Part shown: positions 3,694 to 64,000 of the stretch, piece by piece
Position numbering within the stretch: the stretch's first letter is position 1
Layout of the letters: each line of letters opens with the position of its first letter
Source: Bilabrum cf. latius
Taxonomy: Eukaryota
Reading direction: 5' to 3'
NCBI GenBank assembly: GCA_965178125.1
Contig: OZ237758.1
Location: 868,001 to 932,000 of the forward strand
Length of the DNA: 64,000 nt
Translations under genes and position numbers: made by a program
Notes under the pieces: model-generated
Databases searched by the model: none
The model's input: only the letters and a program-made list of their open reading frames with translations
Told to the model about the DNA's origin: nothing

Positions 3694-5278
3694 ATGTTTA
3701 AAAGCGGATGCTGGAGTGCATTTAGAGCCTTTGGTGCGCTTGCGGGGACGGCTATGGCAGGAGGTGCACTGAAGAGCCAAATCGTGAGTTGCGCACCTAC
3801 GGATGAACCTTCTGCAGCTGCTGGTGGTGCGTGCGTGGACACCACTAAAGACCACTTGGTGATAACGTTTGGTGCTGGTGGATATGGATAGCTTGGCCAT
3901 GGCTCCGAGCATGATGAAGTGAGGGTTCCGGCCAATCTTAGTGTTGCCTGCTTGGCTTGTGTGTGTGCCGTGAGCGAGCGTTTCGATGAAATGTTTGTGG
4001 CAGTATTCGATTCGACCTCATTGCAGTTTACCGCAAAGCCAGTCGAAGCACTGGAAGGAAAGTCTCCGATACAGGTAGCTTCACACGGATCTGGGACCCA
4101 TTCCATCGTGTCCACATCCGACGGTGCAGTTGCCGATTTCGGCAACGGCAACGAGAGCAGGCTTGGGCACGGATATTATCCTCGCTCGTAGTACGTGCCG
4201 AATCAGGCCGTCCCGAAGTTTCTTGATCATATCGACGGCGAGGTCGTGCAGGTGGCGGCGGGCGGTGTGCACGGCGCCGCAGTGGGCAAGGGAGGCGAGC
4301 TGTGGACCTGGGGCAAGGCTTCCTAGGGTCAGCTGGGGCACAAAGATGCTCGCAAGGGGTATCCTAACCGAGTAGACGCGCTCAGTGGCGTAAAAGTGAG
4401 GCATCATTGAGCGAATGGATGGGAGTATCCTGCTTGCGTCGGCTTGCGTGCATGCTTCCAATCCTGCCGGGGGGCATCATCACCGTGCTGGCATTCCCGT
4501 CTGTCATACATCGCACCGTTCGTTCATCTCGCAGGTAGTGTTCGTGTCTTGCGGTCACAAGCACACGGTTGCGGTGGACGAGGATGGAACGGCATGGTCC
4601 TTCGGTGCCAACAGGGACGGGCAGCTGGGTCTCGGAGACGAAGGTTCCTCCAGGGGGGAGAGCGCCCCGAGGAAGGTGGAGGCACTGGTCAAAGCGGGCA
4701 AGAAAGTCGTGGGGGCTGCGTGCGGCAGCGATTTCACGCTGTTCCTCACGTCGGACGGGCAGATCTGGGCCACTGGAAGCGACTCCGACGGCCAGCTGGG
4801 CCAGGGGCAGCCCACCCCTGGACTGGAGGAGCCCAGCCTGGTGCGGGGCCTGGCCGGGCAAAAGGTGGTCAAACTGGCGGCGGGAGACACGCACGCGCTG
4901 TGCCTGACTGCCAGCGGCCACGTGTTTGCGTGGGGCTCCAACATCAACGGGCAGCTGGGCGTCGGAGACCGGGCCTCATCGGCACAGCCCCGCGAGGTGA
5001 CTGCCCTGGATGAGGGGGAGCTCGACGGCGCGGCCGTGGAGGGGATCGCGTGCGGCGGGGGGCACTCGCTGGCACTGCTCAATGACGGACGGATCCTGGC
5101 CTTCGGGCGCGGGAGGAACGGGCAGCTGGGCAGTGGGCAGCACCTGCAGAGCGTGGCAGCGTACCGCACCACGCCCACGGAGGTTGACTTGGAGCCTGCC
5201 GCAGGTGCGGGGTGCGGCAAGGTCGTGGCAGTGGCAGCCGGTGCCGAGCACTCGCTCGCTCTCTGCGAGCGCCAGTGA
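3694..5278 (+). CDS. RCC1-repeat beta-propeller protein; exons 3694-3918, 4027-4395, 4535-5278; 3 in-frame TAG
   Basis: Repeated FG/WG-x3-GQLG and H-S/T motifs. GTGAG...GCAG introns at 3919-4026 and 4396-4534 restore repeat spacing. TAG at 3889 (FGAGGYG*LGHG), 4189 and 4324. Ends TGA. Confidence 0.85.
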
Positions 5279-5346: not shown

Positions 5347-8300
5347 CCGGCGCCGTGAAAGGTCCGCCATTATTGGCATTCCGAGTCCCAAAATCGCGAC
5401 CATCGTGCCTTTAGGCTCCCATTGCTGAGAACTGGACCAATTTCTTGGGTAAATTTACATTGCAAAAATATCTAATGTAACATTTAAATGTAATGCAGTC
5501 CCAACGGAGCCATGCAATTCGCAGCATTAGACTGAAAACGAGTCGTGCTTGCGACCACCATTTTTGGCGACCACCCCCAGCCCAAGATTTTACTCGCTGG
5601 CGAGGGGTGCCAGATGCACGCACCGTGTGCCGCCAAAAAAGCTTTTCTTTGGTTTCTATTGGTACTTAGTAGGTAAACACATACTTTACAACATGTTATC
5701 AGGTCGCCAGGCTCATTCATTTGCAATCCAGCGAAATTTGGCTGCCATTCCAACACACGTCGGTTCAAACGGTTCCAAAATTTGCAGGGCATTTATACCT
5801 TAGCGCAATAGACTTTTAACTCACTGGCACTACTGTTGAGATAAAAGGGTATTGAATGCAATATCATGTGGAGGATTCCGTCTAAGTTTGCGAGAAGAAC
5901 GAGTGGGACGCGATAAAGTGGCTCCAGCGGCGCGTCCGAAGTTGGGTCTCGGGGTGCAAGTGCCCCTGGTGGGAGTGCCTCGTCTCGGCATCACGAGCAG
6001 AAATCCGCCAAACTCAGGCTCATCGATCAAAGTGAGTACGGTATTGTTATGGTTGATGGAATTGCATGGGCTGTAGCCGGCTATTATCGGGGTACCGTAC
6101 AATCTGCCGCAGAGGCACCGGAAGCCACGAATGTGGCACTCATTGACAGTATCCATGCATCCGTGGTATGCTTGACGAGGTGTTGGTTGAATAATCATTC
6201 CATGGTGATGTGGACGAGCTTAAATAATTATACAGAGGTATAATAGGGCCACAATCGGGCTTGCGTCCTGTGCAGAATTGGCCATGCACGGTGTTGCTGC
6301 AAGGCCACTGATATCAGCCTTCATCGCTTATTTGTGCTTAGCCTTCGCAGAAGCATCTCAGTCAATCCCAAAATTCTCATTGGAGTCTTGTAAACCTATA
6401 TCTAGCGTTTCGGTTGCTAGCAAGTAGTCAAGAAGCAGCCCGTCCCATGCGGCCAGTTCGAGCCGACGCGCTGGGTCCAAGCGTAAACGGCAAGAGGACA
6501 ATGCAAATAAATCGACAAAAGATTATGATTTACGTGATTTGTTGGGCGAAGCATAGGCCAGCGATGATGATATGGACTATGTCGGCGATTCAGACGAGGA
6601 CGAGCCGGTATCCAGTCGGTCTGCAACTTTGAGCCGGCCTCCGGTGCAGCATCGTAGGAGGTAGTAGGCTCACCAAGCAAAGCGGCGCAGAATAGAGCAA
6701 TATGAAAGTATGTTTCCTATGGACAAAATTGCATCGTTGGTTGATGAGCCTGAATATAGGTACTTCTTGAATGACCGGGTTGTGATTGGTGGTGATGGGA
6801 TCCCGATCGCTCGCACAGCGGCTACTCATGTGGCTGCTACTGAGTATGTCAATGGCTGGATGACGGCTCATCATGAACAACCAATATCTCCAATACGCAT
6901 TCTGTGCTCGCTGGTGCCTCTCGATATTGCATTTTCGTGGCGAGGCACTGCAGCGGCAGAGGTAGCTGGCCAGGCAGCCGGCCAGCCGGCAGCGACCAAC
7001 CAATGGACATGCCAGTTGCCATGATGTTCCTGGCCGTGGCATTGACTCGGTCTCTCATTCGACCCCGGATACCTTTAGAATTGCTGCAATCAAAGTAGTT
7101 CCTGGTGCGCATGAAAGACGATATCGTAGTGCAAGACTGGAATCGGTTCCATCGAAACTTGTCTTTCGCCGGGAGGTTGCAGGAGGCTCCGGCACCCCTG
7201 CTGGCGGAGGAGCGCGCCACAATGAGGCTAGGGAGTGTGGGCAGTCCTCGCGAGCGGGTACTCATAGAATATCCACCAGGCATGCTAGATGCAGTTTCAG
7301 AGTACTTTCGTGCGGCTACTTTGAGCCCAAAGAGCATCGCCGTCGATGAGATGATGGTGATGGCGTACGGCCGAAATCGGGCATGTGTCATCATGCCGAA
7401 CAAGCCCACATCGCATGGCTTTAAGCTATGGGCAGCTGCACGAAAAGACGGGTATGTGTACCATTTGGATCTAGCAACATCTGTTGCCGATGATACACGA
7501 TAGTACAGAGGGAAGGCTGAGTACTCGTATAAGGTAGCAACCGGCAGCGGCACCGCTGCCGGGTAGCTGACCCGGATGGACCTGCAAACAGCAGCTGTTG
7601 CGTCGAAGGCAATGGGCAAAAACTTGAACGGGGGCCTCCTAGCGGTGGATAACTACTTTACATCGGCTCCACTGTGTGATTGGGCCGCCAGCAAAGGCCT
7701 TCGGGTTGTTGGCACGCTTCGCCAAGGCAAAGTGAGCGGTGAGCTGTACCACGCGATTGGCTAGCTGAACAGACGAACCCCAGGCGAACGCGGGCAGGCT
7801 GTGAAGCGCGCTCTTCTTGGGTCCAGCAAAGTATCTTTATGTAATGTAACAGCTGGTGATGTTTTTGATGCGAGTGAGCTTCCTGCGGGATCGCTGCTGG
7901 CCGAAGAGGACCTTGGCAGTCGGGGCCTGTTGAGCCCTGGCCAGACACTAGCCTTTGACTCGCCAGATGATTCAGCTTATGGGATGCAATTTTTTGGATA
8001 CTGTGACCGCGCACCATTTCTTATGGCTTCTAACATTCCTACGAAGTACTTTGTTTGCTTGGTAAAGACGCTACGGAGAGATGGTGGCGACCTGAGTGTG
8101 GTGAACGCGCCCCTCGTGTCCGTCCTCTACAACAAGTACATGGGGGGTGTGGATCTAGCTGACAAGTTCCGGACGCAACTTTCGCTAACAAATTCATTCC
8201 AGAGAGAGACTAGGGCATACTTAAGAGTGTGGGAAGGTTTAATGGAGCAAGTTATCGTCAATACGTACATCATCTGGGTCAACTTGGAGGCACGTCGACT

Positions 8301-9250
8301 GCTAGATATCTACGCCACGGACCCACTCGTCGGCAAGCTGCTGGAGCTAGCAGCAAATCCGTTCAGGAACAGGTTTAGCACATGGTGCGGCATCGACAGG
8401 CTCGTGGTATGTTTGTGCAGCTGTTGTATGACGAATTGATGCGTCCTTACCGACATGCACGTGCAGGAACTCGCGGTGCTGCAACCTCAGCTGGGATGCG
8501 TGCGGAGGCGACCCCCGGGAACCTTGGATGTAGAAAGCAGCACGTGGTAGCTACGCTGCTGGGCTCGCTCCATTTGATTGGAAAGGAGTAGTTACAAGCA
8601 GGACTGATTAAATTTCTCAGTAGCGGACGATCAAAGAGCCGTCGAGTGGGGTGCAGCGCCAAGTGCAAGGGCTCCAGATGCAGCAAGCGGCAGCATCATT
8701 AGTCGGTTTCTTCCTATTAAGTGTGTTCACGCTGCTGCAAGTTCATTTTTGGGGATTGTAAAGAATCTCTGTATCATCTGGAAACAGGATTTGGCTGTGA
8801 TATAGATTAAGTTGATATAAATGCCAAGTAGATGGATGCACAAGAATCGGGTCGCGAAGCACGTAATTCATGGCAGGTCCACATTCGATTCAATATCTTG
8901 TAAACCGTTCGGTAACTTTTTTGCGCTAAGACTTATATATAATATAACCACCGATTAATTCAAAAAAGCTTGTTTATTTTGCAAGCATGCCTGCTTGGAC
9001 AAACTTCTGCAGTATCAAAGTAGCCCTTCCTGAAAATCGAGCGTTTGGTTTCATGACCACCAAATATACTATTGTCGCAAGTTTATCAATGAGTAACACT
9101 CGCAGTCGATAGTTAACTTATACAATTTTCAATATCTTGATATTATTTTAGGATTACTTGAATGGTACGCGAGAATCGGTAAGGTGAATTGAAGGTACCG
9201 ATATCGGCGATACCGGTCGGTCGGCCAAATCCGACCTTTCACGGCGCCGG
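5347..9250 (+). mobile_element. piggyBac-like DNA transposon, 3904 bp, 18-bp perfect TIRs, apparent 4-bp ATAC target-site duplication
   Basis: CCGGCGCCGTGAAAGGTC at 5347-5364 and its reverse complement at 9233-9250. ATAC at 5343-5346 and 9251-9254. AT-rich subterminal regions and an internal DDD transposase. Confidence 0.85.
6284..8810 (+). pseudogene. piggyBac-family (DDE_Tnp_1_7-like) transposase, probably frameshifted or degenerate
   Basis: Motifs IAVDEMM..YGR...MPNKP..HGFK, VDNYFTS..L, VGTLR and YNKYMGGVDLAD lie in one frame (about 6990-8380) linked through TAGs at 7096, 7501, 7564 and 7762. Frame changes near 6950-7000 and 8380. The Cys-rich tail has an in-frame TAA at 8718. Start uncertain. 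Confidence 0.8.
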
Positions 9251-12031: not shown

Positions 12032-14188
12032 TCAGCGCCCCTTCCCCCCCGGGTCCGCAGCCACCCCCGATCCTGCCCCGGCCCCCGAGAGCGCCGCCCC
12101 CGCCTGACCACTCTCGAGCGATTTCAGCATCTTGAAGAGGGACGCTGCCTCCCTCACCTTGGAGAATTCGATGCAGAACGCCTGGATCTCAATGAAGAGC
12201 TCGCTCACGTTGATGATCTGGTGCCGGATGAGGCTCTGCAGGAACACGCAGACGAGCCGCACAAGCCGCGTCTGCAGGAACTTGTCCTTGATGCCCTCGC
12301 AGCTGGAGATGCAGTTGCTGATGTACACGTGCAGGAACTCGGCGGGCAGGCGCTTGGCCGTGGTGAGCTGGTTGACCACCTCCATCCCGTGGAGGGACAT
12401 GTCCATGGTCACCAGCTCAGTGAGGTACTGGGGCTGCTGCGGGGTGTCCAGCAGCCGATCAAGCGCGGCGGTTGCAACCTGTGGGTTGTGTGTGACGAGT
12501 GCGGCCAGGTTCTTGGGGCTGATCCCGCTCTGGCGCACCTTGTCGGGCGAGTCTCCCAGCAGCGCCAGCAGCTTCTCCCTCTCTTCCGACTGGAGGGGTG
12601 CCTCGCACGCTCTGGCCATGAGCGCCCTGGTCCCGTCCGTCTGCGAGGCGGAGGCGCCCATGCCCACGTCCCACAGGAGGGTCGGGGGGACCACCACTCC
12701 CGCGCGCATGTACTCTTCATCTTCAAATTGCAGCACGGGGGGAGGGGGGCGGGACAGCAATGGGCGGAACCCGACCACACCGAGTGGAAGGGCCAGCGAC
12801 CCACCCGCGGCCCTGTCTGGAGCAGGCGATGTAGAAGATGAAGAAGAAGAAGAAGAAGACGAAGAAGCGCCTTTGGCCTTCTCCCCGCCGCTCTTCTTGC
12901 CCCCTTTGCTGTCCCTGTCCCTGCTGCCAGACTCCGCAGAGGAGGACGAGGACGAGGAGGAGGGGCGCCCGCTCTGCCCAGCCACCCTGCTTCCCGCCCC
13001 TCGATCCGATTGTTCCCTGGCGGGCAGGGCCAGCCCCGCGCGGCTGAGCACTGCCTCGGCCACCTCCCTGGCCGCCTCCGAGGGAACAGCGGATGGGGCA
13101 CCCGCCCTCTGGAAGGATCTCCCCGAGCCCGGCTGCATGCGCGGGAGACCCTCCACGGTCAGCGGGCCGGTGGGCAGCGAGGCCGCAACGTCGGAGGCCT
13201 GCCCGTTCGCCGCCATCGCTGCCACGCCGGCCCGCTGGGTCAGGGCTGCCTAGACCTCGGCGGCCGACGTGCCGGCGGGAGGTTCCGCAGCCAGTGCCTG
13301 CGCGGCGCCGGCGTCCATCCCGTGGAGGCCCAGGACTGCCCGTCTGCTGGCGGCGGCCGCCTCCTTGGCCTCGGCGCTGGCCCCCGGTCCGGTTGCAACC
13401 GCTGCCGCGGCCTCTCTCAGCGTCCTCGCTACTTGTTCCCTGGCGAGGAGCGCGGTCTGTCCCTCCGGATCCAGCACCACGGGGCGGACAGAGGCCGCGG
13501 CGGTGGGCATGGGCGCCGGCATGCGCTCGGCGACGGACTGCCGGAGCGGCTCAAGGTCTGGGATAGGGAGCATACTGCTGGTAGATGCCATCATGGCGTC
13601 GATAGCAACTTGGGGTGCCATGGAGGCTCCGGCGAGGGCGTCCGAGGAGGGGCCCGGTCGAAGCCAGCGGAGCAGCAGCTGGCGTTCCACCTCCGATGAC
13701 GTGCTGGTGGGTTCGAGACATCGCAGACAGAATAACGAAAACGGGTTGACCCCTCCAGGCGCATCCGCGTACATGTGAACGAGAGCATGCAGCGCCAGAA
13801 GCCGCTGCGGGGCTGACAGCAAATTGTCCTCGAGCAACGCTACGATCGCGCACCCCAGCCGAAACTTCAAAGCAAGAGACTAGCCAGCAAGTTCATTGAC
13901 TCGCTTGGATACCGCTTCAAATGATTCAGAGGTTCTCTGCGAACGGGGGCAAGCAGGGATACAGCAGGCAGGGCTGATTGGCGACAGTCTCTGCCGCACA
14001 TGCCGTGGCATGGCTGCACGGGTGCAACACGGCAGATCAGCAAAGAATCAAGGTATCGTGGGCTCGCTGCAAGGACTTACGCCAATAATCGTGACTAGCT
14101 GCTCCAGCATGGCATCGGACAGCTTTAGCTCGTCCGAGTCGTCCTGCATCCTGCCGTCATCGCGACGAGTACCGCCTCTTGATGCCAT
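12032..14188 (-). CDS. CNOT11: CCR4-NOT complex subunit 11; exons 14081-14188 and 12032-13936; 2 in-frame TAG
   Basis: C-terminal MDMSLHGMEVVNQLTT...YISNCISSCE.IKDKFLQTRLVRLVCVFLQSLIR...IEIQAFCIEFS is the CNOT11 domain. GTAAGT...CGCAG intron at 13937-14080. TAG at 13880 and 13250. Ends TGA. Confidence 0.9.
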
Positions 14189-14401: not shown

Positions 14402-16505
14402 ATGGGAGAGAAGAAGCACGTGAACTTGGTTGGTAAGTTTTTATGCATTTACTGGCGGCAAAATCCAAGGTGCGAGCCTGCTGGCGCAGATACGATGCTT
14501 TTCGTCTTTGCACGTGTACTTTGCTCCCACTCGCAGTGATCGGTCACGTCGACGCCGGCAAGTCGACCACCACTGGCCACCTCATCTACAAGTGCGGCGG
14601 TGTGAGTTTTCAACTCGTGCTGTTCAGGTTTGTTTGCTTTGGTATGCTGTCATTCTCGGTGTGGTTGCTGCTTGGCGCGTTGCCGGCTTGCAGTGTACCC
14701 CGACGTTTTCCAGCGATAGAGCTCGAGCATCCGCGGCCCAAACTACCTTCAATGGGTAAATGCATGCATATTTGTTTGATTGTGGGTGTGTGTTTGGTTA
14801 TAGACGCCGTTGGGGACGATGTTTTGGTCACGTTTCTGTGCGGCATCGCCACGCACGACCTCTAGCTCCAGTTTGGGCTTGGCTGCGGGGCTGGACAGGT
14901 TACAGGCGATTGCAGGCTGGTAATGTGGGTATTTGAAGCCAGTTTCTACCACTTTGAGTCGCCTGAAATTCTGTTGGGATCGGATTTGCAGATTCCGTGC
15001 GAGTGACCATGCGGTCGTTCCCTGCCCGATCGATGGCATGTCTGGGCACATGAAGACCCTTCGTGGCTTGTCAAGCGCGTAATAGGTTGCAATGTCACGT
15101 AAATATTACTATTGCGTGGCCTGATCACTCTCCCGCCCGAATTACTTGCTTCCTGAGAATCTTCGACTTGTCAACTTTTCTCTTGCAGATCGACAAGCGT
15201 ACCATCGAGAAGTTCGAGAAGGAGGCCGAGGAGATCGGCAAGTCTTCTTTCAAGTACGCATGGGTGCTGGACAAGTTGAAGGCTGAGCGCGAGCGCGGCA
15301 TCACCATCGACATCGCCCTGTGGAAGTTCGAGACCCCCAAGATCGAGTTCACCGTGATCGATGCCCCCGGCCACCGTGATTTCATCAAGAACATGATCAC
15401 CGGCACTTCCCAGGCGGACGTGGCCATGCTCATGATCTCTTCCGACCCCGGTGGGTTCGAGAAGGGTGTGTCCGCGGACGGCTCCACCAAGGAGCACGCC
15501 CTGCTGGCCAACACCCTGGGTGTGGAGCAGCTCATCTGCGCCACCAACAAGATGGATGCCACGGAGCCCAAGTACTCCAAGGACCGCTTCATGGAGATCT
15601 GCAACGAGATGGCCGTGCACGTGGCCAAGATCGGCTTCAAGCTGCCCAGCTACATCAAGGTGGACGGTAAGAAGTGCAAGATCGACGAGGACAAGTTCCT
15701 GGGCAAGGCTCAGTTCGACCTCGAGAAGGTGGAGAAGAAGGGCAAGAAGAAGGTGCTCAAGCACGTGCGCTTCGTCCCCATCTCCGGGTACGAGGGCGAC
15801 AACATGATCGAGAAGTCCGACAACCTCAAGTGGTGGAACGGCCCCACCCTGCTGCAGGTCCTCGACTCCGTGGAGCCCCCGAAGCGCCCCACCGACAAGC
15901 CCCTGCGCCTGCCCCTCCAGGACGTGTACAAGATCGGCGGCATCGGCACAGTCCCCGTGGGCCGTGTGGAGACCGGCCAGCTCAAGCCCGGCATGAGCAT
16001 CTGCTTCGGCCCCGCCGGCATCGTGACCGACTGCAAGTCTGTCGAGATGCACCACGAGTCCGTGGACTGCGCCAACCCCGGTGACAACGTCGGGTTCAAC
16101 ATCAAGGGTGTGTCTGTCAAGGAGCTCAAGCGCGGATACGTCGCTTCCGACAACTCGAACAAGCCCGCCACCCAGTGCGGCAGCTTCGAGGCCCAGGTGA
16201 TCGTGATGAACCACAAGAACATCCAGCCCGGCTACGCCCCCGTGATCGATTGCCACACTGCCCATGTGGCCTGCAAGTTCGAGTCCATCCCCGTGAAGCT
16301 GGACAAGCGTACCATGAAGAAGGTGGAGGACAACCCCAAGAGCCTCAAGTCCGGTGAGGCCGCCATGGTGAACATGGTGCCTTCCCGCCCCCTCGTGGTG
16401 GAGGGCTACAAGGAGTTCCCCCCCCTGGGACGCTTCGCCGTGCGCGACATGCGCAAGACCGTGGCTGTGGGCGTGATCCAGAAGGTGACCCCCAAGGCCA
16501 AGTAA
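14402..16505 (+). CDS. EEF1A: Translation elongation factor 1-alpha; exons 14402-14432, 14537-14601, 15189-16505; TAA stop
   Basis: Spliced product reads [45 protein letters not shown]...[20 protein letters not shown]...NKMD...[11 protein letters not shown]. Introns at 14433-14536 and 14602-15188. Strong C/G-ending codon bias and no TAG codons. Confidence 0.97.
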
Positions 16506-20878: not shown

Positions 20879-23800
20879 ATGTCTGACAGTGAAAGAACGC
20901 CTAATGGTGCGGCCGCTGAATTGATCACGTAGCAGCTGAACCACGCGTACAACCCAGCGCTAGCCCACGTGCTGCAGGAGAGCTTGTCTGGGCTCCTGTA
21001 CAGGCTGCAGCAGAACGCCGTCGCTCTTTTGGTGATCGCTGGGTTCTACGCTGCGTTTATTGCGCAAGAGAGGAAAACGTGTGAATCCCTTTTTTTCTGG
21101 GGAGCAATGGTTGGAATCGGGTCGGGTGCGGCAGCCCTGGATGTGGTGGTATACTGGTGCACGGCAACGCATGCCGAACGCAACGCCCGCGGTAGTCGGT
21201 AGTTTTTCAACTGCGGCTGGGGTACCTGCCATACACTTCTATCAATCGCAGCTAATGCATGCATGTATGAGGTATGGTGTGCATGCTGGTCGAGAATCTG
21301 CCGGTTGAGACTCTGCTGCATGCGAAAGCCGGCAAGGGGCAGCTCTGGCTACAACTGTAGGAACAAATGCTGTCCTGACGCGAGAATGCAACAAGTTGAA
21401 GGTCTCCCAGTCTTCTTTTATGTGGACTGCGCTGTTATTCTTCTCCAGGATGTCGCGCTAGTCCTTGGCTCGACCACCCCGATCTGGAGCGACTGCGAGG
21501 CCGACTTGGCTGCCACGCTGCTGGGCCTGGGGGCGCTGGCCTGCGGGATTGCGCGACAGCTCATCTACCGCCAGATCCTGGGTCCGGACGGGACCCGTCC
21601 GGACCTTGGCCCCGATGCGACACACCATGCTGATGCTTCGACGCTTGAGACTGTCGTCACGCCGGTGCTATCTTGGGCGCAGAGGGCGCAGATCCGCGGG
21701 GGCATCAATGCGCAGCCAACAGATGCCGACATGTTACTGGCTGACGAACTGACCACCTTGGTTGGCGAGATCGATGCTAACGATCTGCATGCTGCCATGG
21801 ATGTCAGCCTGCACTATGTCCGGCATCTCAAAGATGCCATGAATGCGAGCATCAAGTAGCTCCAAGAGCGGGTGCGCAAGGCAGCAGAGGCTTAGATAAG
21901 AGCTGAGTCTGCAATCCTTGTATTCAGGACGAAGCACATGGCGCAAAAGTCACGGGCTGTCGGGGCAGCTTCTGCAAAGCAGTCATACCTCGAGGACCGC
22001 CCTGGAGCCAATGTAGCTGCGAATGGCGCCGGCCCAACTCTTGATGTGCCAGAGTTTGTGGTAAATGACACAGCAGCTGCTCACCAATTGCAGCTTCGGG
22101 CCGCCAGACGGCTGGCAGAGGCAGAGGCGAGTGGTGCTCAAGCGGAAGCGAGGCAAAGAACGGTGAAACGCTGGATCAGGAACGCAACGGTCGTAGACGA
22201 AAAGGTTGTAAACATAGAAGCTCAATTAATAGGAGCGGTTGATCTATTCAGGGTAGACGGTAGGATGTTGCTGTCAACAGTATGGAGAGCGGTCACGAAG
22301 CAGATCACCCAACCCATTGCTTCAGCCGGGATTGCTACTGGCTAGCAGCCAAAGAAAGCAGCAAAGGAACTTGCAAGAGTTGCCTCGATACTGGCTATCA
22401 GACTGGTGCAGAACGCATGCTACAACTCGTTCTCGGCCCTAGAGTACAACAACCTTATAGAAGAGTACAACGAAGCACTGCCTCCCCTACACCCTCTTAG
22501 ACTTCAAGTGCTTCAGCCGGTACAGCAAGCTGGGGCAGGGCCGGCGCAGCAAGCTGGGGCATGGCCGGCGCAGCAAGCTGGGGCAGGGCCGGTGCAGCAA
22601 GCTGGGGCAGGGCCGGTGCAGCAAGCTGGGGCAGGGCCGGTGCAGCAAGCTGGGGCAGGGCCGGTGCAGCAAGCTGGGGCAGGGCCGGCGCAGCAAGCTG
22701 GGGCAGGGCCGGCGCAGCAAGCTGGGGCAGGGCCGGCGCAGCAAGCTGGGGCAGGGCCGGTGCAGCAAGCTGGGGCAGGGCTGGCGCAGCAAGCTGGGGC
22801 AGGGCCGGTGCAGCAAGCTGGGGCAGGGCCGGTGCAGCAAGCTGGGGCAGGGCCGGTGCAGCAAGCCGGGGCAGGCCAGATTCAGCCCGTGATCGTCCGG
22901 CAACACCAGATTGTAGTGTCTGCCATGCGTCAAAGGCGGTCCGTGCCGATACGGTATGCTACTGCCCAGCAGAATGCATTCATAGGGGCAGGGCCGGCGC
23001 AGCAAGCTGGGGCAGGGCCGGTGCAGCAAGCTGGGGCAGGGCCGGTGCAGCAAGCTGGGGCAGGGCCGGCGCAGCAAGCTGGGGCAGGGCCGGCGCAGCA
23101 AGCTGGGGCAGGGCCGGCGCAGCAAGCTGGGGCAGGGCCGGCGCAGCAAGCTGGGGCAGGGCCGGCGCAGCAAGCTGGGGCAGGGCCGGCGCAGCAAGCT
23201 GGGGCAGGGCCGGCGCAGCAAGCTGGGGCAGGGCCGGCGCAGCAAGCTGGGGCAGGGCCGGCGCAGCAAGCTGGGGCAGGGCCGGCGCAGCAAGCTGGGG
23301 CAGGGCCGGTGCAGCAAGCTGGGGCAGGGCCGGTGCAGCAAGCTGGGGCAGGGCCGGTGCAGCAAGCTGGGGCAGGGCCGGTGCAGCAAGCTGGGGCAGG
23401 GCCGGCGCAGCAAGCTGGGGCAGGGCCGGCGCAGCAAGCTGGGGCAGGGCCGGCGCAGCAAGCTGGGGCAGGGCCGGCGCAGCAAGCTGGGGCAGGGCCG
23501 GCGCAGCAAGCTGGGGCAGGGCCGGCGCAGCAAGCTGGGGCAGGGCCGGCGCAGCAAGCTGGGGCAGGGCCGGTGCAGCAAGCTGGGGCAGGGCCGGTGC
23601 AGCAAGCTGGGGCAGGGCCGGCGCAGCAAGCTGGGGCAGGGCCGGCGCAGCAAGCTGGGGCAGGGCCGGCGCAGCAAGCTGGGGCAGGGCCGGCGCAGCA
23701 AGCTGGGGCAGGGCCGGCGCAGCAAGCTGGGGCAGGGCCGGCGCAGCAAGCTGGGGCAGGGCCGGTACAGCAAGCTGGGGCAGGGCCGGCGCAGCAAGCT

Positions 23801-25006
23801 GGGGCAGGGCCGGCGCAGCAAGCTGGGGCAGGGCCGGCGCAGCAAGCTGGGGCAGGGCCGGCGCAGCAAGCTGGGGCAGGGCCGGCGCAGCAAGCTGGGG
23901 CAGGGCCGGTGCAGCAAGCTGGGGCAGGGCCGGCGCAGCAAGCTGGGGCAGGGCCGGCGCAGCAAGCTGGGGCAGGGCCGGTGCAGCAAGCTGGGGCAGG
24001 GCCGGCGCAGCAAGCTGGGGCAGGGCCGGCGCAGCAAGCTGGGGCAGGGCCGGTACAGCAAGCTGGGGCAGGGCCGGCGCAGCAAGCTGGGGCAGGGCCG
24101 GTGCAGCAAGCTGCGGCAGGGCCGGCGCAGCAAGCTGCGGCAGGGCCGGCGCAGCAAGCTGCGGCAGGGCCGGCGCAGCAAGCTGGGGCAGGGCCGGCGC
24201 AGCAAGCTGGGGCAGGGCCGGCGCAGCAAGCTGGGGCAGGGCCGGCGCAGCAAGCTGGGGCAGGGCCGGCGCAGCAAGCTGGGGCAGGGCCGGCGCAGCA
24301 AGCTGGGGCAGGGCCGGCGCAGCAAGCTGCGGCAGGGCCGGCGCAGCAAGCTGCGGCAGGGCCGGCGCAGCAAGCTGAGTCAGGTCAAGTCGCTCCTAAC
24401 GGTCGTGTCGTCGTCCGGCTTGGTATGCCGGCACTATCCCGGGTTGCGGCAATAAGTTTTACGGCAGCTGACTATGCAAGCAATGGGGCCAAGGTCCTGT
24501 AGGAGTCCCTGTACATATTGCTCAGCTCAATTCAGCTGTTAAGTAGAGATGGGCGTGCTGTCAAGTTGAGGTCATGGTACTGGGAGTGGGCGAAACAAGC
24601 CAGCAAGGCAGCCATTACAGCGGTCCTAGATCGCATGACTGCTTTTAAGCTGCGCGGTCACCGGGACCTCATCCGCATTCGCGTGAACCGCTTCATCGGG
24701 GCAGCACCAGCCACGCGGTCTGTGTACACCTTCAACCTGAGGCCCATGCTCGAAGAGGCTTAGGGACTTGCCAATGGCATGCCGTTCGAGATCGAGTTCA
24801 AGGTGCGGGATCCTGACCTGCACGACCGCTATGTCACTTCGAAGATTCTAAGAGAGACCACTCCTGTGACAGACCACAGGCTGCGCTGCTACCTGCTCGC
24901 CCAGCCCAAGACGAGTGGCAGTCCCTTCAACGAGTGGTGGAATCCGTACGAGAAAGCTGGTGAGGAGGATGACAGTAGCGGTGACGACACTGAAGAGCCC
25001 GTCTGA
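20879..25006 (+). CDS. Orphan 1375-aa protein with N-terminal hydrophobic/Cys-rich region and a long GAGP(A/V)QQA repeat; 7 in-frame TAG
   Basis: Six tracked ORFs (20969, 21263, 21938, 22406, 24518, 24779) share one frame and are separated only by TAG. ATG 20879 follows an in-frame TGA at 20864. Ends TGA at 25004-25006. Confidence 0.7.
22517..24376 (+). repeat. Coding 24-bp minisatellite GGGGCAGGGCCGGYGCAGCAAGCT in two blocks (about 14 and about 58 units)
   Basis: Visible 24-bp periodicity at about 22517-22877 and 22985-24376, separated by about 108 bp of unique in-frame sequence. Confidence 0.95.
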
Positions 25007-32617: not shown

Positions 32618-32865
32618 TGCGACCTGTGCAATCACGAGCTTCATGTTGCCAGGGGCCCCCGGGCGACGTTGGCCTTGTTGCAACGAATACAAAGGAAATT
32701 CATTTCAGATCGGAACGTGCGTGCAATCTAGCCTTTTATCATTCCTACCCGTGTCCCATAATGCAGTCTCGTTGTTCTTACGTAGTACTACTAGTAGGCT
32801 ACTAGAAAGGGCTTGGGCCCATCAGACCTGAGCAGACGGGGTTCGAGATTTGATCATTTTTGGAG

Positions 32866-35800
32866 CCTCGTGCCCCTTCTCGCTCGTGCCCCTCCTCGTA
32901 CCCCTCCTCGTACCCCTCCTCGCTCGTATCCCTCCTCGCTCGTACCCCTCCTCGCTCGTGCCCCTCCTCGTACCCCTCCTCGTACCCCTCCTCGTACCCC
33001 TCCTCGCTCGTACCCCTCCTCGCTCGTACCCCTCCTCGCTCGTACCCCTCCTCGCTCGTATCCCTCCTCGCTCGTACCCCTCCTCGCTCGTACCCCTCCT
33101 CGTACCCCTCCTCGTACCCCTCCTCGCTCGTACCCCTCCTCGCTCGTACCCCTCCTCGTACCCCTCGCTCGTACCCCTCCTCGCTCGTACCCCTCCTCGC
33201 TCGTACCCCTCCTCGCTCGTACCCCTCCTCGCTCGTACCCCTCCTCGCTCGTACCCCTCCTCGTACCCCTCCTCGTACCCCTCCTCGTACCCCTCCTCGC
33301 TCGTACCCCTCCTCATTCGTACCCCTCGCTCGTACCCCTCCTCGCTCGTACCCCTCCTCGCTCGTACCCCTCCTCGTTCGTACCCCTCCTCGTACCCCTC
33401 CTCGTACCCCTCCTCGCTCGTACCCCTCCTCGTACCCCTCCTCGTTCGTACCCCTCCTCGCTCGTACCCCTCCTCGCTCGTACCCCTCCTCGCTCATACC
33501 CCTTCTCGCTCTTACCCCTCCTCGCTCGTACCCCTCCTCGCTCGTACCCCTCCTCGTACCCCTCCTCGTTCGTACCCCTCCTCGCTCGTACCCCTCCTCG
33601 CTCGTATCCCTCCTCGCTCGTACCCCTCCTCGTACCCCTCCTCGTACCCCTCCTCGCTCGTACCCCTCCTCGTACCCTTCGCTCGTACCCCTCCTCGCTC
33701 GTACCCCTCCTCGTTCGTACCCCTCCTCGCTCGTATCCCTCCTCGCTCGTACCCCTCCTCGTACCCCTCCTCGCTCGTACCCCTCCTCCTCGTACCCCTC
33801 CTCGCTCGTACCCCTCCTCGCTCGTACCCCTCCTCACTCGTATCCCTCCTCGCTCGTACCCCTCCTCGTACCCCTCCTCGCTCGTACCCCTCCTCATACC
33901 CCTTCTCGCTCGTACCCCTCCTCGCTCGTACCCCTCCTCGTACCCCTCGCTCGTACCCCTCACTCGTACCCCTCGTTCGTACCCTTCGCTTGTGCCCCTC
34001 CTCGCTCGTGCCCCTCCTCGCTCGTACCCCTCCTCGTACCCCTCCTCGCTCGTACCCCTCCTCGCTCGTACCCCTCCTCGTTCGTACCCCTCCTCATACC
34101 CCTCCTCGCTCGTACCCCTCCTCGTACCCCTCCTCGCTCGTACCCCTCCTCGTTCGTACCCCTCCTCATACCCCTCCTCGCTCGTACCCCTCGCTCGTAC
34201 ACCTCATTCGTACCCCTCCTCGCTCGTACCCCTCCTCGCTCGTACCCCTCCTCATACCCCTCCTCGTTCGTACCCCTCCTCGTACCCCTCCTCGTACCCC
34301 TCCTCGCTCGTACCCCTCCTCGCTCGTACCCCTCGTTCGTACCCCTCCTCATACCCCTCCTCGCTCGTACCCCTCCTCGCTCGTACCCCTCATTCGTACC
34401 CCTCCTCGCTCGTACCCCTCCTCGCTCGTACCCCTCCTCGTACCCCTCCTCGCTCGTACCCCTCCTCGCTCGTACCCCTCCTCGTACCCTTCGCTCGTAT
34501 CCCTCCTCGCTCGTACCCCTCCTCGCTCGTATCCCTCCTCGCTGGTACCCCTCCTCGCTCGTACCCCTCCTCGCTCGTACCCCTCCTCGCTCGTACCCCT
34601 CCTCGCTCGTACCCCTCCTCGCTCGTACCCCTCCTCGTACCCTTCGCTCGTATCCCTCCTCGCTCGTACCCCTCCTCGCTCGTACCCCTCCTCGTACCCC
34701 TCCTCGCTCGTACCCCTCCTCGCTCGTACCCCTTCTCGCTCGTACCCCTCCTCGCTCGTACCCCTCCTCGTACCCCTCCTCGCTCGTACCCCTCCTCGCT
34801 CGTACCCCTCCTCGCTCGTACCCCTCCTCGCTCGTACCCCTCCTCGTTCGTACCCCTCGCTCGTACCCCTCATTCGTACCCCTCCTCGCTCGTACCCCTC
34901 CTCGCTCGTACCCCTTCTCGCTCGTACCCCTCCTCGCTCGTACCCCTCCTCGTTCGTACCCCTCCTCGTACCCCTCCTCGTACCCCTCCTCGCTCGTACC
35001 CCTTCTCGCTCGTACCCCTCGTTCGTACCCCTCCTCATACCCCTCCTCGCTCGTACCCCTCACTCGTATCCCTCCTCGCTCGTACCCCTCCTCGCTCGTA
35101 CCCCTCCTCGTACCCCTCCTCGCTCGTACCCCTCACTCGTATCCCTCCTCGCTCTTACCCCTCCTCGCTCGTACCCCTCCTCGCTCGTACCCCTCCTCGT
35201 TCGTACCCCTCCTCGTACCCCTCCTCGTACCCCTCCTCGCTCGTATCCCTCCTCGCTCGTACCCCTCGTTCGTACCCCTCCTCATACCCCTCCTCGCTCG
35301 TACCCCTCGCTCGTACCCCTCATTCGTACCCCTCCTCGCTCGTACCCCTCCTCGCTCGTACCCCTCCTCGTACCCCTCCTCGCTCGTACCCCTTCTCGCT
35401 CGTACCCCTCCTCGTTCGTACCCCTCCTCGTACCCCTCCTCGCTCGTACCCCTCCTCGCTCGTACCCCTTCTCGCTCTTACCCCTCCTCGCTCGTACCCC
35501 TCCTCGCTCGTACCCCTTCTCGCTCTTACCCCTCCTCGTTCGTACCCCTCCTCGTACCCCTCGCTCGTACCCCTCACTCGTACCCCTCCTCACTCGTGCC
35601 CCTCCTCGCTCGTACCCCTCCTCGCTCGTACCCCTCCTCGTTCGTACCCCTCCTCGTACCCCTCGCTCGTACCCCTCACTCGTACCCCTCCTCGCTCGTA
35701 CCCCTCCTCGCTCGTACCCCTCCTCGTACCCCTCCTCGTACCCCTTCTCATACCCCTTCTCGCTCGTACCCCTCCTCGTACCCCTTCTCATACCCCTCCT

Positions 35801-35901
35801 CGCTCGTACCCCTCCTCGCTCGTACCCCTCCTCGTACCCCTCCTCGTACCCCTCCTCGCTCGTACCCCTCCTCGCTCGTACCCCTCCTCGTTCGTACCCC
35901 T
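32866..35901. repeat. About 3-kb irregular satellite of 16-, 13- and 12-bp units (CCCCTCCTCGCTCGTA / CCCCTCGCTCGTA / CCCCTCCTCGTA)
   Basis: Continuous array with strong C/T versus G/A strand skew. Nearly every unit contains GTACCCC. Confidence 0.97.
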
Positions 35902-36037
35902 ACCGTGCACAGGCCGGGCGGGCCCCGGCCCGGCCCATGCCATTAGTGCCACAGTGATGCACTTGCCTCAAACTGCACTGCATTGCCACCGAACTCCGTG
36001 GCACCCAATCATTAGGATATCCATTGTCTCACAGCAT

Positions 36038-47971: not shown

Positions 47972-49048
47972 TCAAGCAACCGCCTCGTCCTTCCCCTCTG
48001 CCTCGTCCTTCCCCTCTTCGGAAGCCCCTGCCTCCCCGCCCTCCTTCCAGTAGTCCACCGCGTCTAGCGCCACCTCGCAGCTCTCCCGCACCACCTGCTC
48101 GGGGTCCTTCATGAACGTTCGCAGCGTCTCAAGCGCCCCCTTGGTCCCCACAGCCCCCAGCGCCTCGGCTGCCTCGTGCCTCACCATCGGGTGCTCCTCT
48201 GCCTTGGACAGGCACTCTGCAAGCTAAGACTCCGCCTCCGGGGCGGCCATCTGACCCAGAACGTAGGCGCACTCGTGCCGGAACAGCGCAGAGCTGCCCT
48301 CCAGCATCCCACGGCACAGGGCGCTCACCGCCGCGGCGCCGCCCCGGTTCCGCAGCGCGAACATGGCCCTGTACCTCTCGAAAAGCGGCCTGTCTTCGTC
48401 CAGCAGCTGCGCTCCCAGCTCCTCCACGCTCGAGGAGCCCTCCGCCGACTAGGACGCTCCCGACGGTCCTGACGTGGTGGGCTTCGGGGAGGCCTCTGCG
48501 GGCACAGCAGCGGCGGTGGGGGGCGCGCTGCCGGTGCTGATGGTACCCAGATCGGCCTCTGGTAAAGGGGCGGGGTCGATGGATTGGTACGGATTCGCGG
48601 CGTCGCACCTGGACTGCGCCACCTCGCCGTGCTCGAGGCGCCACCGGACCGCTGGCACTGCGATCTGGCACGTCTCAGACACTTCCTTGGCGTCATCTTT
48701 GCAAAATTCCTCCAAAATCAGTAAGGAATCAGCAGAACCAATTGCAGCGAGCGCTTCCGCACACTCGTGTCGCACTATTGAATCGTCGGAGGTATCGCGC
48801 AGAATCGCGGCAAGGTGCTCGTCTGCGCTTGCCAGTCTCATCTGCCCTAGGCAATATGCTATCTCGTGCCTGAAAAGACAACTTCCTTTCTTGTCTGCCA
48901 AAGCTGTTGCGAGCGCGGCAGCTGCCCCTTCGCCACCGTTGGTGCGCAGGAAAAACACTGCCCGCATTCTCTCCGGCATGGGTTGCTTCGTGTCGAGCAA
49001 AACCTTCTATAGAGATGCCACATCCTGGGCCTCCTCGCAAGCTGCCAT
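47972..49048 (-). CDS. DOHH: Deoxyhypusine hydroxylase, 358 aa, 3 in-frame TAG
   Basis: Four HE motifs ([47 protein letters not shown]), SIDPAP and [16 protein letters not shown] at 49007, 48449 and 48224. Ends TGA. Confidence 0.95.
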
Positions 49049-49214
49049 CGTTCACGGGCTTTCAGCGGCGACAAAAACTCAGCTGAACTAGTAAGCGGCG
49101 GGTCGAGGGCCCATGCCGGGAACAGCAACCGGATTGCGGCTAGTAGTTCCGGTTTTGGCAACGCTGCCATCCGTTGCAGAGCGACCTCACCGGTCTCAAA
49201 CCCTGTCAAAAACG

Positions 49215-62101: not shown

Positions 62102-63637
62102 TCAATCAATTGCATTCAGAATTGACGTTGTAGTTGTCGCGAAAAGTGAGAACACCCCAAACAGCATCAGAGCTGCACTCGGTAGAATCTCTTGTAGCAC
62201 AGTGGAGCATGACGTAGGGGCATCCTCACCCCGCCAAATGACTAGGCGAAGGGCACCTGGCATAATAAAACCAATGATCGTTGCACTCACCCCTCCTGTA
62301 AGCTCTAATACTATTCCTAAATCCTCGACGACCATTGCAATCCCAACAGTTGATGCCCAAATCAACAGAGATACAGCTACATGAGACCACATGCTCAACT
62401 CAAGCTTAGTCCTGACTGCTTGCTAAACTGCAACCCGAGATGGTTCAATATCTTCTGCAGCAGGTGCTGATGCGCTACTTTCGTCGTCAACAAGGGAGGG
62501 TTGGTGACCACCCTGTTCATCCTCCACTTCCATGTAAAGACCAAAAAGAGAGCCAATACAATGCCGAACAACGAACACTTCCATTGGATAAGTGAGTATC
62601 ATAGTAGCTGCATACCCAACACGAGTTAAATTGGCCCACTCGTCGGAGTCCTGATAGTTGTTAAGTACATTTGCCATTGTGACTCCCCCAAACGTAACAT
62701 AGCCAACGACACCAAGGCAAATCGAAGCCAGAAATGCAACTATGAGGCTTAGTCGAGCAGTGTGTCGCCAAAGATCCAACGAAGGCTCGTCAAGACTATG
62801 GAAAACCAAAAAGCTGTTATGGTGGCAGACGTATGCAAATGCAAACACTCCTATCGATGGTAACGCGTCCTTTCCAAAAAGCACAACGCCATCGCTTTCA
62901 TCTTGCGCATCAGATGCTGAATCGGTTTCCCCGGCGCCCGTTGCTAAACGAGCGATCGTAAAAGCCAATATCCATGCGACTGCGGCCAGAGAAATTCCCG
63001 AAGACCAAGACAGGGTTGACATGTTTCCAACCATCGAAAGCGGCAAAACAACAACAAATGCAACACCCCCTAGAATGACTCGCCGCAACCAGCTAGGAGG
63101 ATCATCATCGTCTCCTATAGCCCAGTGGGCCACAACTGTGCTCAAGGTATCTGTCATGATAATCAGGTACGCGCAGCAAGCACCATAGCCGAATAGGGCG
63201 TTGGCAATGTTCACAGTGGCCCACCCATAGTTACCAAACACCCTGCCTGCCAGTGATTCGTAGTCTTTCTCGTGCAGAAGTACGCCTAGGCGTATGATCA
63301 AGGTCACGCCAAAGTACGTCGCAAGCGCGATTCCAAGCAAGAGAATAGTTCCCAGAACGATCCCAGCCTCCTACATTGCGAAAGGCAGCCCAATGATCCC
63401 GGCACCAATAATTGAGTTAATGAAATTTGAGCTCGCACCAAGCATAGTTGATCCGTTTTGCTGCTACTAACGCTACTCCGCGCTGTCCTACTGCTTGACA
63501 GGGGCAAAGACAGCCGTTTGTTCCTGATGGGTCTGCCCCGCACTGGTGTCCCGACTGGTGGCACCACCCTCCTCAACCGGCACAGAGGGAGTACTCCTGA
63601 CACCAGATAGTTCTATTTCTTCCAACTCGTCAGCCAT
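62102..63637 (-). CDS. Amino acid transporter, Aa_trans/SLC38A11-like, 511 aa, 6 in-frame TAG
   Basis: NFINSIIGAGIIGLPFAM*EAG, FAFAYVCHHNSFLVF, ILTYPMEVFVVR and DLGIVLELTGGVSA motifs, with multiple TMs. Ends TGA. Confidence 0.9.
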
Positions 63638-64000
63638 GATGAGACCTTTGCAGCAGTCTCAAGATGAGGTGAGATGCCATGGTGGTGGGTTCAATTTGTG
63701 GTTCGATTCGGAGTCCACGAGAAATTGGACCATCACGGTACTAGTAGCCGAAGGTGTTAGATAAGTCCGGCATAGAACCGCGCAGATTCGTTCGATGGCA
63801 AGCATTAAGTCTGAGTCTGTCCTCTTCCGAGACAGGGACGTGGCTTTGTCACTTTTAACATAGATTGGGAGCACTGCAACGAAGGCAGCTGCCAGGCAAG
63901 ATGCTGTCGCAAAGCTCGGGGCAACTGTGAGCCGCTAAATTTATCTGTGTTGACTATTCATGCGCTCTTGCTGATCTGCATACGTTCGTTTGGCGCTGTT

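Follow-up and report, generated by a model that had tools for sequence, protein, structure and literature searches.

Probable reading of UAG as glutamine, with UAA and UGA as stops, in the nuclear genome of an apparent bicosoecid stramenopile

Many ciliates, ulvophytes, diplomonads and Amoeboaphelidium read both UAA and UAG as glutamine. UAG codes for leucine in exLh, a rhizarian, and in certain phyllopharyngean ciliates, and the meaning of stop codons depends on context in Condylostoma and Blastocrithidia. Only a handful of nuclear lineages are described as giving UAG and UAA different meanings, and where UAG alone stands for glutamine the responsible tRNA was merely predicted or went undetected in the accounts available (PMC11687900; PMC5304391). 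The fornicate Iotanema spirale has such a code, with UAG and UAA uncoupled in a narrow lineage (PMC5304391; PMC9161772); it is known from a transcriptome, its tRNA was only predicted, as derived from tRNA-Gln(CUG), and its eRF1 carries T32G (PMC5304391). UAG alone is likewise glutamine in the phyllopharyngean ciliates Hartmannula sinica and T. petrani, for which the suppressor tRNA is described as undetected, and in Protocruzia tuzeti (PMC11687900). The crAss-like phages that use code 15 read TAG as glutamine and keep the other stops (PMC9523058), in the setting of bacterial translation with separate RF1 and RF2 (PMC5304391).

Here, a window of 64,000 nucleotides (G000:C24:868001-932000; positions without a contig name refer to this window) from a eukaryotic assembly of 48.6 Mb in 111 contigs was analysed. 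Its in-frame TAGs, together with those sampled across the genome, are best explained by a nuclear variant code of the table-15 type, in which UAG would be glutamine and UAA and UGA stops; we put the probability of this reading at roughly 93%, and the meaning of UAG as glutamine, taken by itself, appears nearly certain from the sequences compared. That TAA remains a stop while TAG means glutamine is the rarer feature of such a code, and most genes of the genome would come out broken if it were annotated under the standard code.

The RCC1-repeat gene and its neighbors

The gene with which the analysis began lies on the plus strand and encodes an RCC1-repeat protein of 425 aa in three exons. Exon 1 spans 3754..3918, with an inferred start ATG and an X5 contig covering 3685-3918 with 0 other letters; exon 2 (4027..4395) and exon 3 (4535..5278) are given by spliced contigs and, for exon 3, also by the Pfam RCC1 match. 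Both introns are of the GT..AG type, intron 1 (3919..4026, 108 nt) being joined across in contigs of X5, X6 and X12, and intron 2 (4396..4534, 139 nt) being absent from spliced contigs. The Pfam RCC1 repeats score 69 and 177 bits against a cut-off of 21.7, which identifies the product as an RCC1 repeat protein, and no TAA or TGA occurs in frame upstream of the terminal TGA at 5276-5278. Both introns are skipped in contigs from two studies (X5 and X6), which carry 0 other letters wherever they overlap the exons. X5, X6 and X12 were taken as RNA-derived on the sole basis that their contigs skip GT..AG introns, since none is recorded as RNA; runs X9-X11 and X13-X16, a small share, were left out. 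The gene is therefore spliced and its three TAGs are unedited.

The first of these TAGs (3889..3891, codon 46) falls in the G-x-LG motif of repeat 1, where the frame reads FGAGGYG-TAG-LGHG, and it stands unedited in the spliced contigs of X5 and X6. It is retained in X12, a relative about 94% alike: none of its 13 differences in this exon affects the TAG, and 68 further differences lie elsewhere. The second TAG (4189..4191) sits within a variable insertion and its column is uninformative, and the third (4324..4326) corresponds to glutamine in P0121, a protein 93% identical. The N-terminus of P0121 lies just past the 4189 site, as would be expected had its gene caller taken that TAG for a stop. 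A preliminary description of this DNA had placed the first TAG at the glutamine position of the RCC1 GQLG motif; we found it there, in frame in repeat 1, and its quoted readings of the motif in the other repeats recur in the translated gene. The step from motif to glutamine was upheld by the genome-wide analysis below, but the argument from one motif is weaker than was stated: over 576 repeats of 119 homologues the G-x-LG column holds glutamine in 393 cases, with Arg at 14%, Asn at 6% and Glu at 5%, and because it is just 68% Gln this TAG alone is suggestive only. In the repeat-1 column of orthologue-like proteins (ten selected, two without the repeat), Gln occurs in 6 of 8, with one Glu and one Ala. 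Directly after the gene, a short element at 5347-5401 is matched by other contigs at high depth and is possibly a small repeat or a transposon end.

Several other frames of the window contain TAG. On the plus strand, a DDE_Tnp_1_7 transposase frame (6877..8439) is open only through 4 TAGs, which suggests a piggyBac-like mobile element dependent on the host code, or drifted into it. On the minus strand, a CNOT11-domain frame (12032..14047) that may include intron sequence has 2 in-frame TAGs, and two frames from the open-reading-frame list with Pfam matches have 3 and 6, namely a HEAT-repeat frame (47972..49051), which we take to be deoxyhypusine-hydroxylase-like, and an amino-acid transporter (Aa_trans) frame (62102..63658). 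The main exon of EF1-alpha (15189..16505, plus strand) ends in TAA and has 0 TAG among its 10 glutamine codons. A tandem peptide repeat of the QQAGAGP type occupies 22346-24502 inside a 1,379-codon frame with 7 TAGs, and 32762-35957 is a 3-kb low-complexity array with strong skew and long tandem repeats.

TAG inside genes and at their ends

Pfam searches of the genome with dynein AAA_6 gave 28 matches, and all 20 internal stops in them were TAG. In 65 matches to the Ras family, 48 internal TAGs were accompanied by 2 TGAs and 1 TAA, exceptions that may come from overlap with introns. Read in 10-kb stretches, 19 dynein genes yielded 20 open frames with 62,925 codons, among which were 273 TAGs, 0 TAA and 0 TGA; single dyneins carry up to 48 TAGs. 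TAGs are also found in the single-copy essential genes for eRF1 and GluRS, and the genes with TAG in frame are spread over many contigs. In a blind sample of 20 stretches of 10 kb, 33 of 2,735 TAGs lay between coding-like, stop-free flanks of 40 codons, as against 0 of 1,330 TAAs and 0 of 5,135 TGAs, the coding model having been trained on the dyneins. TAG made up 103 of 919 glutamine codons in this sample, and 22 of 31 long coding-like frames, taken without a Pfam check, contained it.

The residue encoded by TAG was read from one protein family, the dyneins, with eRF1 and RCC1 in addition. The frames were aligned to 149 of 150 representative dyneins, omitting P0265 (99% identical); of the 273 TAGs, 115 could be read against columns containing 10 or more well-aligned rows. 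In columns at least 70% conserved, TAG stood at Gln in 21 cases, Glu in 4, Arg in 1 and Val in 1 (n = 27), compared with Gln for 265 of 313 CAG and 24 of 31 CAA; at 90% conservation or more, 12 of 13 TAG columns were Gln. The single valine column, which counts against the reading, is invariant among the dyneins. Summed log-odds at TAG were +123.7 for Gln and -56.2 for Glu, the next residue, and both residue methods recovered 61 of 61 sense codons in a control. Mean column composition at TAG (Gln 29.9%, Glu 13.4%) was near that at CAA (25.7% and 13.5%), and the glutamate consensus at 4 of the 27 columns exceeded that at CAG (Fisher p 0.04) but not that at CAA (p 0.70). The preliminary description had argued against leucine and tyrosine, and neither was the consensus at any column with at least 70% conservation; nor were the TAG columns led by Arg, Glu or Leu, the pattern which it had named as speaking against glutamine.

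The closest dynein in the tree (L154, support 0.998) is free of in-frame stops over 3,140 codons. It carries CAG at 11 of 21 aligned TAG sites (52%), and at CAA and CAG sites its share of Gln is equally 52% (n = 127). Across 20 frames, the TAG share of glutamine codons dropped with rising GC at fourfold sites (rho -0.84), TAG behaving in this like the minor codon CAA.

Gene ends gave the complementary result. Dynein C-termini, counted for the 16 of 25 dynein-C matches that reach the end of the profile, ended at the homologous place in 16 of 16 cases, with 3 TAA and 13 TGA; Rab/Ras genes ended after the Cys box in 20 of 20 (4 TAA, 16 TGA), out of 30 Ras loci, the rest being without a usable end. 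With RCC1, EF1-alpha and eRF1 this makes 39 ends, 9 in TAA, 30 in TGA and 0 in TAG, for which the upper 95% bound is 7%, so that low-level use is compatible with this small sample. Two loci (L150 and L121) read through TAG 12 and 21 codons ahead of their true ends. TGA is the main stop in this GC-rich genome, and the genes gave no indication that it is read through. A table-6 code, with both UAA and UAG as glutamine, was rejected, as TAA never occurred in frame in the coding samples and ends genes.

The CUA tRNA, GlnRS, eRF1 and a proposed mechanism

A single tRNA gene with the anticodon CUA was found (G000:C23:907607-907679, minus strand); it forms a perfect cloverleaf and has a 69.8-bit Rfam score. 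Two pattern searches and a DNA search found no nuclear UUA tRNA, in a survey that is incomplete: it scored 63 of 780 candidates, and tRNA-His and tRNA-Leu are absent from the recovered set. Two identical tRNA-Gln(CUG) genes are present. A second 'CUA' call, made in L264 at a relaxed threshold, was discarded because its cloverleaf is not canonical. Pyrrolysine was rejected as well, the aligned columns being Gln and the ARAGORN label 'tRNA-Pyl' reflecting the anticodon only. Two observations concern other tRNAs: in tRNA-Trp(CCA) (G000:C40, L298:94-166, minus strand) the anticodon stem is mismatched at its base (A31.C39), and at least five near-identical copies of a tRNA(CAU) have a body like that of tRNA-Pro, with 8 of 12 stem pairs in common, possibly a second isotype switch in this genome.

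Across its acceptor and anticodon stems, the CUA tRNA has 10 of 12 pairs in common with tRNA-Tyr, 6 with tRNA-Gln(CUG) and 3 with tRNA-Gln(UUG). The maximum among 314 unrelated tRNA pairs was 8 of 12; the comparison covered 26 other nuclear tRNAs, the pair of arms was picked after looking, and Arg(UCU) is mis-registered in the null. Both stem pairs that differ from tRNA-Tyr are compensatory, one change leads from GUA to CUA, and among the 26 other tRNAs C1-G72 occurs in tRNA-Tyr only, both Gln tRNAs having G1-C72. Likeness over the whole molecule is unexceptional: 39 of 57 fixed positions match tRNA-Tyr, against 34 and 32 for the Gln tRNAs, and 10 of the 314 unrelated pairs reach 39. What matches tRNA-Gln(UUG) is the D stem (4/4) and G73 only, and similar D arms occur in the Glu and Trp tRNAs too. 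The CUA tRNA further carries A37, has no long variable arm, and ends its anticodon loop as does the tRNA-Glu of this genome. Derivation from a tRNA-Gln, the Tetrahymena route, was rejected on the stem counts. Older su3 mutants of E. coli are reportedly amber tRNA-Tyr derivatives that accept glutamine. C1-G72, whose retention speaks against a Gln charge, and A73 are eukaryotic Tyr identity elements (PMC9976931), and in E. coli G73, A37, G2-C71 and a pyrimidine at 34 are Gln determinants, with amber variants of tRNA-Tyr able to take traces of Gln (PMC1483225). Tyr ancestry of the CUA tRNA is thus probable, and we infer a tRNA-Tyr descendant, or a Tyr/Gln mosaic, that carries Gln.

The GlnRS gene (G000:C33, L152:1015-3267, minus strand) has F-F-G-L in the loop that reads G36, where five solved GlnRS (1gsg-type, 4ye6-type, 4h3s, 2hz7 and 5zdk) have K-R-L or F-R-L, so that Gly replaces Arg. 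We take the 1gsg-type chain to be from E. coli, and the 4ye6-type and 4h3s chains to be the human and yeast enzymes that serve as eukaryotic controls. The glycine would fit tolerance of A36 and is a lead only, because plant GlnRS may also have Gly at this place. A scan of viral contigs found no GlnRS relatives. In E. coli the residues of this loop are Lys401 and Arg402 (PMC2978374).

One eRF1 gene was identified, with four exons inferred from splice signals, a product of 439 aa and a TAA end; the other two matches of the search are presumably Pelota-like. It contains TAG at human position 44, where 116 of 117 homologues have Gln, and at position 69, where 115 of 117 have Leu, a column that speaks against glutamine. 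The homologue set leaves out 3 of 120 hits with duplicated domains, two of which are plant proteins with Gln69, and because plant eRF1s have Gln69 (also 8IP8) this residue alone cannot explain the code. Residues present in none of the homologues include G29A, N30D, I35V, S60V (by which TASNIKS becomes TAVNIKS) and K130H, and R28K is present in 3 of 108; GTS, NIKS, S70 and YxCxxxF are retained. S60V and the loop before GTS may be the better candidates for a change in UAG recognition. In yeast eRF1 assays, L69A is described as raising readthrough a little more strongly at UAG and N30A as having no effect (PMC4381064). Two UAGs among 16 glutamine codons of eRF1 are what chance gives at about 10% and therefore no evidence of selected autoregulation; if the reading is right, a gene that needs two UAG read-throughs for its own product, one at residue 69, would lock the change in.

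In the mechanism that we propose, the single CUA tRNA would read UAG and not UAA, which is very probable. It would be charged with Gln despite its Tyr-like stems, A73 having changed to G73 and G37 to A37 and the D arm being of Gln/Glu/Trp type. More doubtful is the step by which GlnRS would tolerate A36, the G36-reading Arg being Gly here. Substitutions near the GTS loop, TASNIKS and position 69 would have deprived eRF1 of most of its ability to recognise UAG, which is likely in outline, and TAG would have spread as a minor synonymous codon, at about 9-11% of glutamine codons, mostly where codon bias is weak. The complete scheme, a first stramenopile nuclear code change with an amber tRNA born from tRNA-Tyr and turned to Gln, a GlnRS without the G36-reading Arg and an eRF1 blind to UAG with GTS intact, is put forward tentatively.

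The Tyr-like body of the CUA tRNA and its C1-G72 would also suit a Tyr-type relic or inactive gene, with tRNA-Gln(CUG) reading UAG as Gln by first-position wobble and a weakened eRF1 as its competitor. Two copies of that tRNA are at hand and near-cognate readthrough by tRNA-Gln is described (PMC13192750), but the CUA gene is intact and high-scoring, A73, the conserved Tyr discriminator, is gone from it, and the TAG load of the richest dynein would demand near-complete readthrough; we consider this route unlikely. A CUA tRNA delivering Tyr would give Tyr columns, and there are 0 among the 41 at 50% conservation or more. The same absence of a Tyr signal, together with column composition that mirrors CAA, counts against ambiguous decoding, in which UAG would mostly be Gln and at times Glu or Tyr; the glutamate columns (p 0.04 against CAG), the Glu-like end of the anticodon loop and the Tyr-like stems speak for it, and we hold it to be quite improbable.

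A dual meaning, Gln inside genes and stop near the 3' end of the mRNA, draws on the fact that just 39 ends were counted and that usable ends were lacking for 10 of the 30 Ras loci and for 9 of the 25 dynein-C matches. None of those 39 is TAG, however, two TAGs are passed shortly before conserved ends, and TAA and TGA are still available as stops, which makes this possibility more improbable again. Nonsense mutation, whether in pseudogenes or by C-to-T decay, would be helped by CAG to TAG being a single transition and by TAG being commonest in low-GC genes; against it, TAG occurs in eRF1 and GluRS, and in 19 of 19 dyneins without TAA or TGA. Since the spliced contigs of two studies carry identical TAGs and the one at 3889 is kept in the relative about 94% alike, assembly error or RNA editing fares no better, and we give this whole group of explanations next to no weight. 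Hardly any falls to leucine either: position 69 of eRF1 is Leu in most homologues, as are 2 of the 41 TAG columns at 50% conservation or more, but Leu is found at 0 of 27 at 70% or more and the CUA tRNA is without a long variable arm.

Lineage and comparison with known codes

By EF1-alpha the closest named protein is that of Cafeteria roenbergensis (68% identity). A 45-row tree places the protein with the Cafeteria clade (98/94), outside Cafeteria itself and on a long branch, and it has in common with Cafeteria and a few unnamed proteins an insertion of about 38 residues (41-45 between anchors, versus 6 in most). For eRF1, identity to the protein from Bicosoecida sp. CB-2014 is 74%, an undistinctive value next to 73-76% for unnamed and yeast hits. 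The organism is thus apparently, on EF1-alpha only, a single-celled flagellate akin to Cafeteria, a bicosoecid stramenopile. Its mitochondrial contig (G000:C111; 38,401 bp, 24.4% GC) carries almost all of its long frames on a single strand and uses TGA for Trp, as is also described for Cafeteria (PMC6972860) and Cafileria (PMC6723347), consistent with this placement and not diagnostic of it. ARAGORN finds 10 tRNAs there, far below the number in Cafileria (PMC6723347), which implies heavy tRNA import. Cafeteria genomes have 34-36 Mb and 70% GC, with a variant code annotated for mtDNA only (PMC6972860); this is therefore probably a different bicosoecid, and the change a narrow one. The assembly also holds a second eukaryotic 18S (G000:C95:6099-7900, on a 17.9-kb contig), which shares only 77-83% identity with the main array of C12. 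It is presumably diatom-like and probably comes from a co-cultured organism.

Among 80 metagenome dynein loci we found no other carrier of this code. TAA and TAG are both in frame in many of them, seen with the same pipeline, and four TAG-only loci (2-6 sites) group among these, far from the organism, as placed by FastTree from 46 loci out of the 80 plus five genes of its own. An unrelated metagenome dynein (L225:5001-7736) has 6 TAG and 0 TAA in 1,437 codons and perhaps represents another UAG-only code. In two more (L196 and L209) the frames contain all three of TAA, TAG and TGA, each 20-25 times, and the frequent Arg opposite these stops in the organism's dynein suggests a further variant code there.

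The open-access texts searched, among them passages of the reviews PMC11412368 and PMC13768787, showed no nuclear reassignment in stramenopiles, and likewise no natural Tyr-derived Gln suppressor; because subscription journals and genome notes lie outside the literature search, we estimate a probability of about 30% that an earlier report exists. With the codes that assign both UAA and UAG to glutamine, the present one has UAG in common, and TAA is here only a stop. It has the same table as Iotanema, equally uncoupled and narrow, and differs in an intact GTS of eRF1, in other eRF1 residues that have changed and in a CUA tRNA with two stems like those of tRNA-Tyr. Hartmannula, T. petrani and Protocruzia agree in the reading of UAG alone as glutamine, whereas here, unlike in the first two, a CUA tRNA was found, and the host is a stramenopile. 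Code-15 phages also agree in keeping the other stops, but a eukaryote, having no separate RF1 and RF2 as in bacteria, must retune its one eRF1.

For the tRNA, the nearest parallel is experimental: laboratory amber derivatives of tRNA-Tyr also combine a Tyr body and a CUA anticodon into a GlnRS substrate, as proposed here, yet they are engineered, weak and charged by a bacterial GlnRS (PMC1483225), and a natural and complete switch would be needed. At all four E. coli Gln elements the CUA tRNA departs from tRNA-Tyr in the direction of Gln, although G2-C71 is not a shared local determinant, because the organism's own Gln tRNAs have C2-G71. In the ciliate PL0344, each of the ten CUA tRNAs is described as similar to its own isotype, Glu (PMC10553269). 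The tRNA, eRF1 and GlnRS are available together here from an assembly that is largely chromosome-scale, and the kinship to Cafeteria, whose nuclear genes are annotated without a variant code, makes swaps directly testable. Both an eRF1 that overlooks UAG only and a switch from Tyr to Gln identity in nature would bear on genetic code expansion. Compared with the known systems, this is apparently a known but rare type of code in a new supergroup, with a tRNA ancestry that contradicts the published expectation.
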